A stretch of DNA of 64,000 nucleotides from a virus (taxonomy: Duplodnaviria > Caudoviricetes): the IMG/VR virus record IMGVR_UViG_3300012983_000031, positions 96,001-160,000 of that record. One strand, written 5' to 3'. Made by a program: the position numbers and the translations under genes. Shown piece after piece: positions 17,079 to 52,775 of the stretch (position 1 is the stretch's first letter; each line of letters begins with the position of its first letter). The notes below the pieces were generated by a model that saw only the letters and a program-made list of their open reading frames with translations, ran no database searches and was not told where the DNA came from.

Positions 17079-18884
17079 ATGGAAGATAAAATATTTGATC
17101 CAGAAACATGTTCATTGGACGAACTTCAGACCAGAATTGATGAGCTGGAGAATGAGGAAGATTATTATAACACGATGCAGTTGTCTGCAAAACAATTCAT
17201 CAATTCTGTATATGGTGTCTTTGGTACCAATTTTTTCAACTTGTCAGATGCGCGTATCGCAGAATCTATCACGCTGCAGGGTCAAGATCTGATTAAATTT
17301 TCAGTGGTTGAGATTAATGATTATATCAATAACCACTGGAACACTGATTATGATGGTCACAAACGAATCGCCGATAAAATGAAAAGCATATTCGGCGATA
17401 AATTTAAGTATGATGAATTTCTTGAAGCAGCGAAGACAAATAAGATAAACATTGAAACTGCACAAATATATGGAGATACGGATTCAATTGATTCTCAGTC
17501 ACTTATAAGAACATTAAAGCATCCTAACGGAATAAAAGTTGAGGATTTCTATAATGAGAATATTGATAATGTTGGTGAAACAACATTGATTGGTCATGAG
17601 TCTGTTCATACAGATGATATGGTTCTTAACTTTGGTGGGCATGAACTTACAAATTTTTCGTTGCTTTATTATGGTAAAGTTAAACGAATCATAAGACATA
17701 AAGTCACAAAGCCAAAATGGACTTTAACGACAAAGGCAGGTCATTGTGTGCATGTTACTTCAGATCATTCTATCATGGTATTGCGTGATGGGAATTTGCA
17801 GAAGATGTCACCAACTGAGACAAGACCTGGCGATTGTGTCATTTCAGCTGATGTTATGCGTGGCGATATTGTTGAAAAAGAAGATTCAATTGTTTCATGC
17901 ATTGAAACTGGTACGTTTAATGATGAATATGTGTATGACATTGAAATGGATGATAACACGCACACGTTTTTCGCGAACGACATCCTTGTACATAATTCAG
18001 CTTACATCACAATGCAGCCTATCATTGACGCATGCTATATACCGTTGGATCAGCAGCTGGATTTTGACCTTGTGTTTTATGATGAGATTCTGGAAGCATA
18101 TATGGACAAGAAGTTCGATGAGTATGCGGAAAAATTCCATTGCTCAAAAAACCTTGAGAAGTTTGAGCTCGAAAAGATCTCAAGGACAATCATCATGCTT
18201 GCAAAGAAGAATTATATATGTGATGTTGAATGGATTGATTCTGGAGCAAGATTTGATCCTCTTGCACATATTACATATACTGGATATGATGTAGTCAAGG
18301 GAACAACACCAGAATACTGCAGACAGGAAATGAAGGCGTTCGTTAACTTTGTGATGGGGATATTGAATGAAGGAAGAAAACCGTCAATGGATGAAATATG
18401 CAAATTCCTTAAGGCGATAAAGAAACGATTCGTCATGCAGCACCCTAATGACATATCAAAGGCTGTCGCTATATCTAATTATGAGAATTTTGTAAAATGC
18501 GACAACGGGGAGAAGATTGAGTATTTCCTTTTTAAGAAGAGTGTTGATGAAAACGGCAACACGTATGAAACGAACCAAAAGCTTCCAGTGCCGATCCATG
18601 TCCGTGCTGCCGCAGTGTATAACAATATGCTGTTCAATAAAGGAAAGAAGTACAGAAGCAAATACTCGTTAATTAAATCTGGTGACAAGGTTAAATTTTA
18701 TTACACTGGAGAGGATGAGGTGTTCGGATTCGTGCCAGACTTATTCCCCGTGGAGTTCGCCCCACAGATGAATATTGACATACAGTTTGAAAAAATGTTG
18801 CTTAGTCCGCTGAACAGAATAGTTGTCGCTATGGGCTATAATGAAATTCCGCCTACGTTGGCGTATACTCCAGGGTTGTTCTGA
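17079..18884 (+). CDS. Family B DNA polymerase, C-terminal subunit (motifs B and C, thumb), intein-containing
   Basis: KQFINSVYG (motif B), ITLQGQ, YGDTD|S (motif C), KKNY; lacks exonuclease and motif A. Confidence 0.92.
   Translation: MEDKIFDPETCSLDELQTRIDELENEEDYYNTMQLSAKQFINSVYGVFGTNFFNLSDARIAESITLQGQDLIKFSVVEINDYINNHWNTDYDGHKRIADKMKSIFGDKFKYDEFLEAAKTNKINIETAQIYGDTDSIDSQSLIRTLKHPNGIKVEDFYNENIDNVGETTLIGHESVHTDDMVLNFGGHELTNFSLLYYGKVKRIIRHKVTKPKWTLTTKAGHCVHVTSDHSIMVLRDGNLQKMSPTETRPGDCVISADVMRGDIVEKEDSIVSCIETGTFNDEYVYDIEMDDNTHTFFANDILVHNSAYITMQPIIDACYIPLDQQLDFDLVFYDEILEAYMDKKFDEYAEKFHCSKNLEKFELEKISRTIIMLAKKNYICDVEWIDSGARFDPLAHITYTGYDVVKGTTPEYCRQEMKAFVNFVMGILNEGRKPSMDEICKFLKAIKKRFVMQHPNDISKAVAISNYENFVKCDNGEKIEYFLFKKSVDENGNTYETNQKLPVPIHVRAAAVYNNMLFNKGKKYRSKYSLIKSGDKVKFYYTGEDEVFGFVPDLFPVEFAPQMNIDIQFEKMLLSPLNRIVVAMGYNEIPPTLAYTPGLF
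17484..17996 (+). mobile_element. Mini-intein (171 aa, no homing endonuclease) in PolB motif C
   Basis: Begins with Ser after YGDTD; block B VTSDHS; block F YVYDIE; ends ILVHN followed by Ser; splicing restores YGDTDSAY. Confidence 0.92.
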
Positions 18885-36862: not shown

Positions 36863-38368
36863 ATGATAGTAAATACAGAAATCCGAAATTACACGCAGAA
36901 CGGAATTGATGTGATGGATCCATATGGGAGACCACAGAAATTCCTATATATATCTTATGTAGGCGAAGACAAGAGAATTAAGTCATTCTATTGGATGATA
37001 CCGCAGGAATTGATGTACCAGTGGAAATATGCAACAAAGAATGATGTGCCAGATCCAACATATAAGTCGTGGGACGGCAAAGGCGTAATTAAGGTTCCAA
37101 TTGTAAACAAGTTCACCGAACAGCGCGTGCATGAAATCATCATGGATTTAGAACGATGGTTCCCAGATGATCCAAACCTAAAGCAAATCCGTGAAATGAG
37201 AAAACCTAATACAGCGTTCATGGATATTGAGGTTGATGTTGATGATGATGGGTTTCCAGCAGCGGATCAAGCTAAAAATCAAGTAAATACATGTTCAATC
37301 GTTTATAATGAAAATGTTTATGTTCTTGGTTTAGCCCCGTTAACGCAAGATGATATACAATGGATTCAGGATGAAATTGATAAGCATTGTGAAAAGTTTG
37401 ATACAAAATATAAATTCCAGTACAGATATCATCCAAGTGAAATATCATTATTCACAGATTTGTTCAGGAATTTCATAGGAACAATTGATTGCATAACTGG
37501 TTGGAACTGGTTCGGATACGACTGGCCATACTTATGCAACAGGGCAGAACGAATAGGGTTTGATATATCCTGGCTTTCACCTACAAAGACATGGTATACC
37601 TATAAGCTGCAGATTGGCAACAACAGCATGATTAAACTCCCAATGCATAAATGTATGTATGACTACATGGAAGTTTACGCAAAGTATGACAGATCCATCA
37701 CACCAAAAGAAAGTAATAAATTGGATTGGGTTTCAAACCGTGTTCTTGGAACAAAGAAAGTTGTACACCAGCTTGGGTTCAAGGAAATGTGGGAACGCCA
37801 GAAGAAGGAATATGTGTTCTATAACGCGATAGACAGTGTGCTTGTGAGGGAAATCGATAATAAGTTAAAGACAAGCTCAGTTGTGTTCGGTCTCGCATCG
37901 CTTATGAATGTTCCACTGCTAAATACCTTTAGCTCCACAAAGAGCATCGAAATAGTGCAGGCGGAATATCTGTATAGGGAAAATAAGGTGTTCCCTGTTG
38001 TTAAGAATGATAAGAAAAAGGAAGAGTATGAGGGAGCGTTCGTATTCAGACCAATACAAGGTATATATAATAATGTATATACTCTTGACTACTCATCACT
38101 TTATCCTACAACGATGAGGCAGTTTAATATTTCACCAGACACACTTCTGTTCAAGGATAAGGATTACGAACCCAAGGAAAACGAAATTAAATGTACCAAC
38201 GGATGTGTGTACACAAATGACTTTGAAGGATTCATACCTAAGATTCTCAGTGATTATTTTGCAAAGAGAAAGGGATATAAGAATCAGATGATAGCTGCAC
38301 AAAAAGAGAAGTACAGGCTTATATCTATACTGGAAAGACGTAAAAAGAAATTAAACAATTGTGCATAG
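36863..38368 (+). CDS. Family B DNA polymerase, N-terminal subunit (3'-5' exonuclease and motif A)
   Basis: ExoI MDIEV, ExoII GWNWFGYDWPY, ExoIII YNAID, YEGAFV, motif A LDYSSLYPT; ends in the first fingers helix. Confidence 0.92.
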   Translation: MIVNTEIRNYTQNGIDVMDPYGRPQKFLYISYVGEDKRIKSFYWMIPQELMYQWKYATKNDVPDPTYKSWDGKGVIKVPIVNKFTEQRVHEIIMDLERWFPDDPNLKQIREMRKPNTAFMDIEVDVDDDGFPAADQAKNQVNTCSIVYNENVYVLGLAPLTQDDIQWIQDEIDKHCEKFDTKYKFQYRYHPSEISLFTDLFRNFIGTIDCITGWNWFGYDWPYLCNRAERIGFDISWLSPTKTWYTYKLQIGNNSMIKLPMHKCMYDYMEVYAKYDRSITPKESNKLDWVSNRVLGTKKVVHQLGFKEMWERQKKEYVFYNAIDSVLVREIDNKLKTSSVVFGLASLMNVPLLNTFSSTKSIEIVQAEYLYRENKVFPVVKNDKKKEEYEGAFVFRPIQGIYNNVYTLDYSSLYPTTMRQFNISPDTLLFKDKDYEPKENEIKCTNGCVYTNDFEGFIPKILSDYFAKRKGYKNQMIAAQKEKYRLISILERRKKKLNNCA

Positions 38369-43977: not shown

Positions 43978-44547
43978 ATGGCAAAAACTGTTAAGAAAAA
44001 TGAAGCTAAGGCAAAGGAAACTGCAGCACCAAAGAAAAGTGTTGTGGAAAATGTTGTTGCCGAAAGCAAACAGGACGAAAAGGTAATCAGCCTTGAGTCC
44101 GCAGAAAAGATTGAATCAACCGATGTATCGGAAATCATCAACAACGAAACAACTGAGGAATTTACAAACCTTAACACGGAAATCGTTGAAGAAGGAATCG
44201 TTAATCTTGAAGGTGAAACCAAAGACGAAAGTGAAACATTAAACGAAACAGAAGATACACAAAGTGAAACAACCGATGAATCATCAGATGATGATCAGCC
44301 ACAGGAAACACCAGTGGAGGAATACGCATCACTTCCAGAAGATATTTGGGTTGACGAACCTGTGACGTTAGATCCTACAATCTTTGAGAGAATCCCTGTG
44401 TATCCTATCACACCGAAATACACAGCGTGCCCTCCGACGGCGTTAACAAAAGTGTCACCTTCCGATACACCAAAATATAATGCACAATGTCCACCTAAGC
44501 CAGATACGGAAAAAGCAAAGTCATATGTTGCACAAAGACCGTATTAA
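43978..44547 (+). CDS. Acidic, low-complexity late protein
   Basis: E/T-rich, TPKY(T/N)AxCPP repeat twice, late-promoter motif at 43938. Confidence 0.65.
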   Translation: MAKTVKKNEAKAKETAAPKKSVVENVVAESKQDEKVISLESAEKIESTDVSEIINNETTEEFTNLNTEIVEEGIVNLEGETKDESETLNETEDTQSETTDESSDDDQPQETPVEEYASLPEDIWVDEPVTLDPTIFERIPVYPITPKYTACPPTALTKVSPSDTPKYNAQCPPKPDTEKAKSYVAQRPY

Positions 44548-44674: not shown

Positions 44675-44748
44675 CGCGGGGTGGAGCAGTTGGTAGCTCG
44701 CCAGGCTCATAACCTGGAGGTCGCAGGTTCGATTCCTGCCCACCGCAA
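44675..44748 (+). tRNA. tRNA-Met(CAT), initiator-like
   Basis: CGCGGGG start, CCAGG-CTCATAA-CCTGG, GGTTCGATTCC; C1 unpaired, irregular acceptor stem. Confidence 0.85.
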
Positions 44749-51968: not shown

Positions 51969-52692
51969 GGACCTGTAGCTCAGTCGGTTAGAGCAACAGA
52001 CTCATAGTAATTGTGTGCTATGGCGAGAAATCCCATAGTAGAATCTTCCTAAAACGGTGGAAGACCTTTAGATGAATGTGATGGACCCCAAGTGGCGAAA
52101 GTGAAACGATTGACGTATGCAGTAAAATTCCTATATGGTTTGCATAATTGGAGGTGGAAACCCTCCCTTGAGAAGCATTCATCGAACAAACAAAACACTA
52201 ATCAATAATGTGTAAGGTTAATACCGTGCTAAATTGAGAATGCGTGAGAATAAAGAATCGGTCTATGAGAATAAACCATCTGCATAGAATCCCCTTTCTT
52301 ACGTTTTTAAATGAATAAATAATCGATGATGGCTCTTTTGTTTATTCCGTTCTCATAAATGTGTAGAGAGTATATAGGAGATATGAGGGAAATACATTGA
52401 ATACCCTCACATTCCATTCAGATGTATCTGATAAGAATGCCTAAGTTGAAATTAGAATATACAATGATAAAAGTAGTTCAAACGCAGAATTAAGAATGGT
52501 GTCCCATTTGGTCAGAGCAGATTGGCCTTCTGTAAGAATAATTGTATTGACACTTGCAAGAATTTCAATATGGTAATAATGTATTCCAGACTACAACAAC
52601 TTAATGAGTCGCCAAGCGTCTGAAAAAGTTGGCTATGGTAACATAGAGCAGCAGGAATCTGGAGGTCGTAGGTTCAAGCCCTACCTGGTCCA
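51969..52692 (+). tRNA. tRNA(CAT), Ile2 or elongator Met, split by a group I intron (exons 51969-52005 and 52656-52692)
   Basis: Joined exons give ACAGA-CTCATAA-TCTGG arm, T-arm GTAGG-TTCAAGC-CCTAC, acceptor GGACCTG/CTGGTCC. Confidence 0.88.
52006..52655 (+). mobile_element. Group I self-splicing intron (650 nt, no ORF)
   Basis: 5' exon ends in U with a P1 U:G pair; terminal G; P4 ACGGTG/TACCGT, P3 TCTTCCT/AGGAGA, P7 GAGAGTA/TATTCC. Confidence 0.85.
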
Positions 52693-52701
52693 CATATCTT
52701 C

Positions 52702-52775
52702 GCTCCAGTAGCTCAGTTGGTTAGAGCAACGGACTGTTAATCCGTGTGTCGGTGGTTCGAGCCCACCCTGGAGCG
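52702..52775 (+). tRNA. tRNA-Asn(GTT)
   Basis: ACGGA-CTGTTAA-TCCGT. Confidence 0.95.

Follow-up and report, generated by a model that had tools for sequence, protein, structure and literature searches.

What lies between the two halves of a tRNA gene that stand 650 nt apart in a phage genome, and could such a gene still give rise to a tRNA? The question is raised by a 64-kb stretch of DNA, called the window below, which comprises positions 96,001–160,000 of IMG/VR record IMGVR_UViG_3300012983_000031 (Caudoviricetes). An earlier reading of its letters alone, hereafter the sequence-only reading, had proposed a tRNA(CAT) gene interrupted by a large group I intron that contains no open reading frame (ORF). 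The source record is 220 kb long, with an estimated completeness of 60% (IMG/VR), and the host genome is that of a large phage of gut or rumen. We consider it highly probable that this tailed phage carries one tRNA(CAU) gene with an ORF-less, IC3-like group I intron inserted between positions 36 and 37 of the tRNA, and that this intron, as predicted, self-splices.

A tRNA(CAU) gene split in its anticodon loop

With introns allowed (option -i), ARAGORN called 17 tRNAs across the record, 16 of them within the window and one probably false, and these calls include a 75-nt tRNA(cat) at 51969–52693 whose 650-nt intron (52006–52655) directly follows the anticodon CAU. Joining the two halves by script yields what ARAGORN reports as a plain 75-nt tRNA(cat). 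The joined exons are identical at 71 of 75 positions to uninterrupted tRNAs of the crAss-like phages cr273_1 and cr7_1; the anticodon arm is the same throughout, and the 4 differences include a compensating change of a T-stem pair. Four crAss-like phages (cr7_1, cr124_1, cr272_1 and cr273_1) were matched by blastn against 50,697 phage records, and in each of them both halves span 80–88 nt in all, i.e., an uninterrupted tRNA. Because these intact tRNAs match the joined exons, the insert can be placed exactly at CTCAT^AATCTGG. An A at either border leaves one base ambiguous, which is resolved by the rule that group I introns follow a U and end in a G. ARAGORN -i and the alignment of the joined exons agree on the arrangement described by the sequence-only reading, tRNA halves around a 650-nt insert directly 3' of CAT, and in both, removal of the intron from the anticodon loop restores a regular tRNA. 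As had also been anticipated for standard tRNA callers, the split gene is absent from the window outputs of default ARAGORN (15 tRNAs) and of the Rfam tRNA model (15 matches). A tRNA-Asn gene begins at 52702, 10 nt beyond the 3' exon. The probably false call is a 'tRNA-His (atg)' of ARAGORN -i outside the window (G000 C1, 176594–176770, minus strand), in which the called intron has 78 nt and the anticodon is oddly placed.

The identity of the tRNA was approached through a proxy, a 95%-identical intact tRNA of a crAss-like phage, which was compared with E. coli genomes by blastn. Its best match is a PGAP-annotated tRNA-Ile with anticodon CAT (80.4% over 56 nt, 17 of 5426 genomes), and no match to elongator tRNA-Met was obtained in E. 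coli genomes at E ≤ 1e-3. In ten large ORFs of the window, ATA accounts for 38% of the Ile codons. A second CAT tRNA of the window (44676–44747), which resembles an initiator, differs strongly, being identical to the joined exons at 50 of 75 positions. An Ile2 identity appears somewhat more likely than Met; the assignment goes back to one weak blastn match of a proxy tRNA. If the tRNA is of the Ile2 type, the host would convert C34 to lysidine and the tRNA would read AUA. The sole non-initiator CAU tRNA of the phage, probably an AUA reader, would depend on RNA splicing.

A group I core shared with introns of other tRNA genes

That the insert is a group I intron, as the sequence-only reading had it, is supported by the anatomy of its core, by its homology to relatives recognised by the Rfam group I model, by covariation within the helices and by guides that vary together with their exons. 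With the intron alone as query, blastn matched IAS virus, cr116_1 and ten Lak megaphages in short conserved blocks, and a 27-letter pattern from the best block recovered 67 IMG/VR loci, 60 of which lie inside a split tRNA gene according to ARAGORN -i. Among short relatives (196–280 nt), 4 of 8 match Intron_gpI (RF00028) across the full model, namely L063 with 52.4 bits (cut-off 50), L034 with 49.7, L020 with 46.4 and L068 with 43.3; L016, L054, L033 and L065 do not match it, and in a mixed set of relatives 1 of 20 does. A match to this model is treated here as a detector and not as a defining trait of group I introns. A hidden Markov model (HMM) of 11 short tRNA introns, none of the window's own subfamily, was searched on both strands of the window and matches the intron in two colinear parts, 52027–52380 (E 7.9e-10; P2 to the 3' strand of P3) and 52565–52657 (E 1e-8; 3' strand of P8 to the 3' splice site). 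The next match in the window reaches only E 3.4. It is a weak, non-significant likeness to the P3'-P8-P7' block of the family at 44486–44522, ~150 nt upstream of the tRNA(CAT) at 44676. Profiles of the conserved blocks, which include the window's own sequence, found only one family copy in the source phage record.

According to blastn, ~238 nt of the intron, distributed over five blocks, are common with relatives at 80–100% identity, and the remaining ~410 nt are peripheral. The core blocks are 92–100% identical to relatives sitting in other tRNAs, and the block from the 3' strand of P6 to the 3' strand of P3 (52350–52382) is 97–100% identical to relatives. Most fetched relatives occupy tRNA-Leu(UAA) genes after U34, with a 3' core that is nearly letter-for-letter that of the window, and the conserved 3' end with its terminal G is present in 67 of the 69 fetched relatives searched. 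The same family occurs at the same CAT site in three more IMG/VR loci; their introns measure 623 nt (L071) and ~420 nt (L019), and the third (L046) is cut by the contig end so that only its 3' exon is visible. An exact pattern of the 3' core was found on 15 contigs among 185,579 species genomes, all of them in bins of metagenome-assembled genomes (bacterial or archaeal), and 14 of these 15 matches fall inside split tRNAs called by ARAGORN.

The elements on which the sequence-only reading was built, a P1 with a U:G pair, the P3, P4 and P7 pairings and a terminal G, were all located, and Table 1 gives them with the other parts of the gene in window positions, checked against the sequence. A bulged base beside a G-C pair of P7 is the usual guanosine site of group I introns. 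The 57-nt insert between P3 and P8 occupies the place of P7.1/P7.2 of other subgroups. RNAalifold recovers P3, P4, P6, P8 and P9 from the short relatives.

Table 1 Features of the split tRNA(CAU) gene and of its intron, in window positions.
Feature	Position	Strand	Description and basis
5' exon, tRNA positions 1-36	51969..52005	+	ends in anticodon CAT (52003-52005); ARAGORN -i, alignment to intact crAss-like phage tRNAs
Group I intron	52006..52655	+	650 nt, 36.5% G+C, no ORF ≥60 aa
P10 candidate	ATT 52010-52012 with 3' exon AAT 52656-52658	+	predicted from sequence only
Guide GTG, P1	52013-52015	+	pairs with exon CAT, U-1:G at splice site; sequence
P2 hairpin	52018..52038	+	GAAA tetraloop 52027-52030; stem variants of relatives preserve pairing
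P3	52043-52048 with 52377-52382	+	one U:G in window copy; covariation, RNAalifold
P4	52054-52059 with 52222-52227	+	covariation
J4/5 GAAG	within 52054..52068, between P4 and P5 5' strands	+	
P5	52064-52068 with 52214-52218	+	J5/4 before P4 3' strand; covariation
P5 expansion	52069..52213	+	145 nt, closed by 9-bp stem
P6	52235-52240 with 52350-52355	+	J6/7 downstream
P6 expansion	52241..52349	+	109 nt, two hairpins
P7	52366-52373 with 52581-52587	+	bulged A 52367 beside G-C pair 52368:52586; covariation
J3/8 insert	52383..52439	+	57 nt between P3 and P8, folds as two hairpins
P8	52440-52453 with 52561-52573	+	CCTAAG...TATGG motif of 11-nt GAAA-tetraloop receptor
P8 expansion	52454-52560	+	107 nt
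J8/7	52574-52580	+	precedes P7 3' strand 52581-52587
Closing helix of 3' domain	52590-52594 with 52648-52652	+	3/5 pairs in window copy
P9	52597-52602 with 52626-52631	+	covariation
P9a hairpin	52633-52646	+	GTAA loop
Terminal G (omega G)	52655	+	before 3' splice site
3' exon, tRNA positions 37-73	52656..52692	+	CCA not encoded; ARAGORN, alignment

Covariation was assessed in an alignment of 54 distinct family sequences (MAFFT E-INS-i) derived from the 63 of 70 sequences in which both ends were set, i.e., leaving out IAS virus, L040, L045, L046, L057, L059 and L070. The proportion of paired cells is 97% in both P7 and P9a, 92% in P4, 91% in P8, 89% in P3, 86% in both P5 and P9, and 74% in P6. 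Pairs changed on both sides make up 6/6 in P4 and in P6, 5/5 in P5, 5/6 in P3 and in P9, 4/5 in P9a, 4/7 in P8 and 1/7 in P7; within P7, the pair 52370:52584 varies between C-G (27 sequences), G-U (18) and G-C (8). In controls with the partners slid by 1–3 columns, mostly 18–62% of the cells are paired (33–62% for P3). P2 was poorly placed by the automatic alignment (71% of cells paired), and P1 was likewise misaligned. In a covariance-model alignment of the 3' domain (50 matches, 1180 cells), which is fitted to the structure and leans towards it, 96.0% of the cells are paired vs. 85.4 ± 0.5 in shuffles and 14 of 25 pairs are changed on both sides vs. 7.6 in shuffles; 0/500 shuffles reach any of the measures, and slid controls are 25–47% paired. 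In this alignment 20 columns of the 3' core cannot vary because the search pattern fixed them.

The guide triplet was compared in 16 members whose tRNA loop fixes the 5' splice site, and was read 0–2 nt before P2. Guide GTG accompanies exon CAT at 3 loci, namely the window, L019 and, at the homologous spot, L071. GGA accompanies TCT at 5 tRNA-Arg loci, and GAG accompanies CTT at 7 loci (Leu, Ser-UGA, two Lak loci, and the tRNA-Arg of L042, where the split lies one position earlier and the guide was read by eye). GGT, also read by eye, goes with exon ACT at L030, and at L024, among the 16 members, no guide was identified at the homologous spot. Wherever a guide was read at that spot, the U:G is the first pair. 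A guide that changes with its exon is what a working P1 would require, and such matching appears hard to explain otherwise.

Given this anatomy, splicing would be expected to run as follows. The tRNA cluster would be transcribed and the intron would fold, with the exon end CAU pairing with the guide GUG in P1 and the U:G at the splice site. Free guanosine at the G-C pair of P7 would attack after U-1, and the 3' exon would be aligned via P10 (AAU with AUU). The terminal G would enter the guanosine site and the freed 5' exon would attack behind it, joining ...CUCAU to AAUCUGG... and producing a normal anticodon loop; host enzymes would then trim the ends and add CCA.

Points against splicing and competing explanations

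Several observations weigh against a self-splicing group I intron in the window. The check proposed for it, an Infernal search with the group I model, was negative for this copy, as Intron_gpI has no match in the window at the gathering score and none at E ≤ 10 in 951 bases at the locus. In our own reading this miss is likely due to the ~410 nt of insertions; the related loci of IAS virus, Lak-B1 and cr116_1 were not matched by the model either (0/3). A covariance model of the 3' domain (110 positions, 21 short members, built without the window) finds nothing but the intron in the window, which is a point in favour, but it does so only as two split and weak matches of 32.6 and 19.2 bits (E 1.4e-4 and 0.077, respectively); insertions of 57 nt and 107 nt separate the paired strands that it matches. 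In the window copy itself, the helix that closes the 3' domain contains two A-C mismatches, compared with 96% of cells paired in the family, and P3 contains one U:G.

The several hundred extra nt had been described as structured, and three of the five peripheral pieces indeed fold better than chance relative to shuffles (P6 expansion, z -2.65; J3/8 insert, -2.88; P9, -2.83). The other two fold no better than shuffles (P5 expansion, z -0.79; P8 expansion, -0.04), so that the description holds for part of this sequence only. No fetched relative has the P5 expansion (blastn cover is zero at intron positions 76–175); L023 and L009 are ~75% identical to the window intron across the J3/8 insert and onward through the P8 expansion, and the P9 loop is common to the window and L023. 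As to tRNA-like cassettes in the expansions, the tRNA model has no match inside the intron at E ≤ 10.

RNA evidence was sought in Logan contigs; of the four runs covered, three are metatranscriptomes from animal gut or rumen and the fourth is of unknown kind. Depth and uncovered parts were not used as evidence, and DNA carry-over in the libraries is possible. The contigs hold many relatives of the family core, and one from an independent public run is identical over 107 nt to 52445–52551 in the region of the P8 expansion. To the points above must be added that no contig of the four runs joins both exons with the gene's own T-arm. In one RNA contig the 5' exon is followed by 11 letters identical to the 3' exon, which an intron-less relative fits equally, and in the run of unknown kind the continuation after the 5' exon differs from the window gene. 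In run X1, a contig of a relative connects the intron's 3' end (52648) with the start of P2 (52015) across 14 other letters, a join that would fit either a circular form of the intron RNA or a chimeric assembly of different family members.

Much of this would be accommodated if the insert were a group I intron by descent whose splicing has been lost or become poor, with the tRNA(CAU) gene as a tolerated pseudogene. The two A-C mismatches lie in the helix beside the terminal G, the expansions are very large and include two that lack above-chance folding, and neither an Rfam match nor proof of splicing in RNA contigs was obtained. However, U-1, the guide, the terminal G and the bulged A with its G-C pair in P7 are intact, as are the GAAA loop and the receptor motif, and the copy's own changes keep pairing, with C to U in P3 giving a U:G and A-U in P5 facing U-A in relatives. 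The identity of the core blocks to relatives in other tRNAs and the near-identity of the exons to intact tRNAs, including the compensated stem change, also argue against decay, and we regard it as improbable.

Large peripheral expansions could also slow folding, and the intron might then splice only with a protein helper, either an RNA chaperone of host or phage origin or a maturase encoded at another locus. However, it has the tetraloop, the receptor and the core contacts by which compact tRNA introns fold unaided, and it encodes neither a maturase nor an endonuclease. On the latter point the sequence-only reading, which had called the intron ORF-less and devoid of a homing endonuclease, was upheld: the intron has no ORF ≥60 aa on either strand (the longest, on the minus strand, has 54 aa), and tblastn with five endonucleases of the family against the intron gave only E ≥0.4 in a search for remnants. 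The same five endonucleases have no homologue in the whole 220-kb record by tblastn. We consider an obligatory helper very unlikely. That the insert is no intron at all, i.e., another mobile element, a structured RNA gene within the tRNA gene or an assembly artefact, is hardly credible: Rfam assigns no family to it, but it is colinear with introns that match Intron_gpI, has borders that fall precisely at U-1 and the terminal G within the anticodon loop, recurs as a family at the same site on three other IMG/VR contigs, lacks terminal repeats and a transposase ORF, and shares its 107-nt stretch of the P8 expansion with contigs of an independent public run.

Known introns and the distribution of the lineage

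A self-splicing group I intron in this position is of a kind known from bacterial tRNAs and rarely described in phages; what makes the window copy unusual is its size, the expansions at its helix tips and its occurrence in a phage. The Azoarcus intron has a GAAA tetraloop-receptor contact between P2 and P8. The window intron resembles it in its compact core, the GAAA loop of P2 and the CCUAAG/UAUGG receptor in P8. Splicing of the Azoarcus tRNA-Ile(CAU) intron after CAU is directed by a GUG guide with a U:G pair (PMC2709566), and the intron comprises 205 nt in the anticodon loop (PMC13168695). The sequence-only reading had pointed to it as a much smaller intron at the equivalent site, and site and guide are indeed the same (PMC2709566); common to both are also the CAU anticodon loop, a splice directly after CAU, the terminal G and the absence of an ORF. 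Unlike the Azoarcus intron, which resides in a bacterial chromosome, the window intron lies in a phage and extends to 650 nt, with expansions in P5, P6 and P8 and an insert in J3/8; the comparison draws on descriptions of the Azoarcus intron.

Introns of subgroup IC3 are described as lacking P5a-d (PMC11835236). The window copy departs from IC3 compactness, with a 145-nt expansion at the tip of P5 and more in P6 and P8, and because its core is IC3-like and its size is not, we call it IC3-like and not typical IC3. In the naming of Williams 2020 it belongs to class 5Ug: the intron comes after position 5 of the loop (CUCAU/.../AA), U stands at -1 and omega is a g. It would be Ile2.5Ug if the host tRNA is the lysidine-type tRNA-Ile2 and not elongator Met. 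Like bacterial and archaeal tRNA introns in that survey, whose scope was bacterial and archaeal assemblies and not phages, it has the core family of the tRNA-Leu(UAA) introns that follow U34. It differs from the tRNA-Leu(UAA) introns in sitting in another tRNA, after nt 36 instead of 34, in having guide GTG instead of GAG, and in being much longer.

For phages, a preprint on Lak megaphages presents introns in tRNA genes as new and as unclassified after an Rfam test (10.1101/356790). These 'enigmatic' introns resemble the window intron in lying in phage tRNA genes and in being missed by bacterial tRNA finders, and we find a member of the window's family in tRNA-Leu(TAA) of Lak-B1; in contrast to the preprint's description (Phe, Gly, Thr and Tyr; unclassified), the window intron is typed and its tRNA is CAU (10.1101/356790). 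Group I introns of crAss-like and Jug jumbo phages are reported in protein genes (PMC7886860, PMC12880540). They come from the same habitat and the same kind of host genome as the window intron, which unlike them lies in a tRNA gene, and the word tRNA is absent from the main text of PMC12880540. All phage introns known to a 2014 review were in protein genes despite the many tRNA genes of phages (PMC3984707), in line with the statement of the sequence-only reading that phage group I introns are mostly described in protein-coding genes. Our literature search found the unclassified Lak tRNA introns and a bacterial survey but no description of group I introns in phage tRNA genes, with bioRxiv supplements and the supplementary intron tables of PMC12880540, which could list this locus type, outside its scope. 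Contrary to reviews, phage tRNA genes do hold group I introns, and because default tRNA finders and the Rfam group I model miss such genes, phage tRNA repertoires and estimates of codon supply are undercounted.

The wider pattern is the more interesting one. By our exon readings, the host tRNAs of the lineage include Leu-UAA, Arg-UCU at two loop positions, Ser-UGA, CAU and tRNAs with anticodons CUA and UCA, and the core is 90–100% identical among the retargeted members. As the lineage is found in many phage tRNA genes with a matching guide, the most likely mode of its spread is that the 3-nt guide was retargeted, through reverse splicing or recombination, and the window copy is probably a near-neutral passenger. 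A stronger version, in which a single lineage hopped from one phage tRNA gene to another with no change other than in its 3-nt guide and entered a primase ORF at least once, is attractive but in our judgement falls somewhat short of an even chance; the primase insertion site AGACTT^AAAAT copies the anticodon loop of tRNA-Leu. If true, nature would have recorded here how a guide directs spread, with reverse splicing into RNA and later fixation in DNA, among introns of which many lack an endonuclease. A bolder corollary would be that splicing of a stop-codon-reading tRNA could time the phage's switch of genetic code. In any case the family forms a natural series of one ribozyme core with varied 3-nt guides and interchangeable helix-tip expansions, useful for studies of group I intron retargeting and insertion tolerance.

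Mobile group I introns carry endonuclease ORFs of several kinds, and relatives of the window intron encode LAGLIDADG_2 (E 1.7e-30), HNH (two), HNH_3 and PD-(D/E)XK_5 endonucleases of such kinds. The PD-(D/E)XK_5 ORF is carried by the intron of L021 (~449–1068 of the oriented copy), which splits a tRNA with anticodon TCA that would read TGA and is labelled SeC by ARAGORN. At L015 the intron (~811–1063 of the oriented copy) splits a tRNA with anticodon CTA, which would read TAG and is labelled Glu, and this tRNA is adjoined by a ROOL RNA (299 bits); both anticodons are our reading of the exons. One 129-kb IMG/VR contig holds three family introns (L049, L064 and L071) in tRNA-Arg(TCT), an unresolved tRNA and tRNA(CAT), which suggests spread within a genome.

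Outside tRNA genes, a family intron splits the primase gene of IAS virus (L002, NC_049978.1; 889^1489) and of cr116_1 (L004; 1039–1631). The annotated 'two' primase coding sequences of these genomes are one gene, and both run into the intron. Splicing from ...AGACTT to AAAAT... keeps the frame, a guide GAGT stands just before P2, and the exon junction copies the anticodon loop of tRNA-Leu(UAA).

In Lak-B1 (MK250020.1; L003, 587–1330), tRNA-Leu(TAA) seems to hold two introns. The family member sits after U34 (~931–1278), and a second element with group I-like P7/P8/J8/7 motifs lies upstream in the D-loop region (~610–917); Rfam detects neither of the two. ARAGORN accepts the doubly joined exons as tRNA-Leu, a test that does not discriminate because it accepts almost any cut point.

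Elsewhere, the window encodes a tail sheath, a baseplate wedge, a large terminase, a DNA polymerase, a helicase and a ligase. Two of its ORFs, 36863–38368 (+) and 17079–18884 (+), lie ~18 kb apart in swapped order and belong to the same DNA polymerase family, phrog_262. The first covers profile positions 110–491 and the second 581–839, which looks like a polymerase encoded in two distant pieces.

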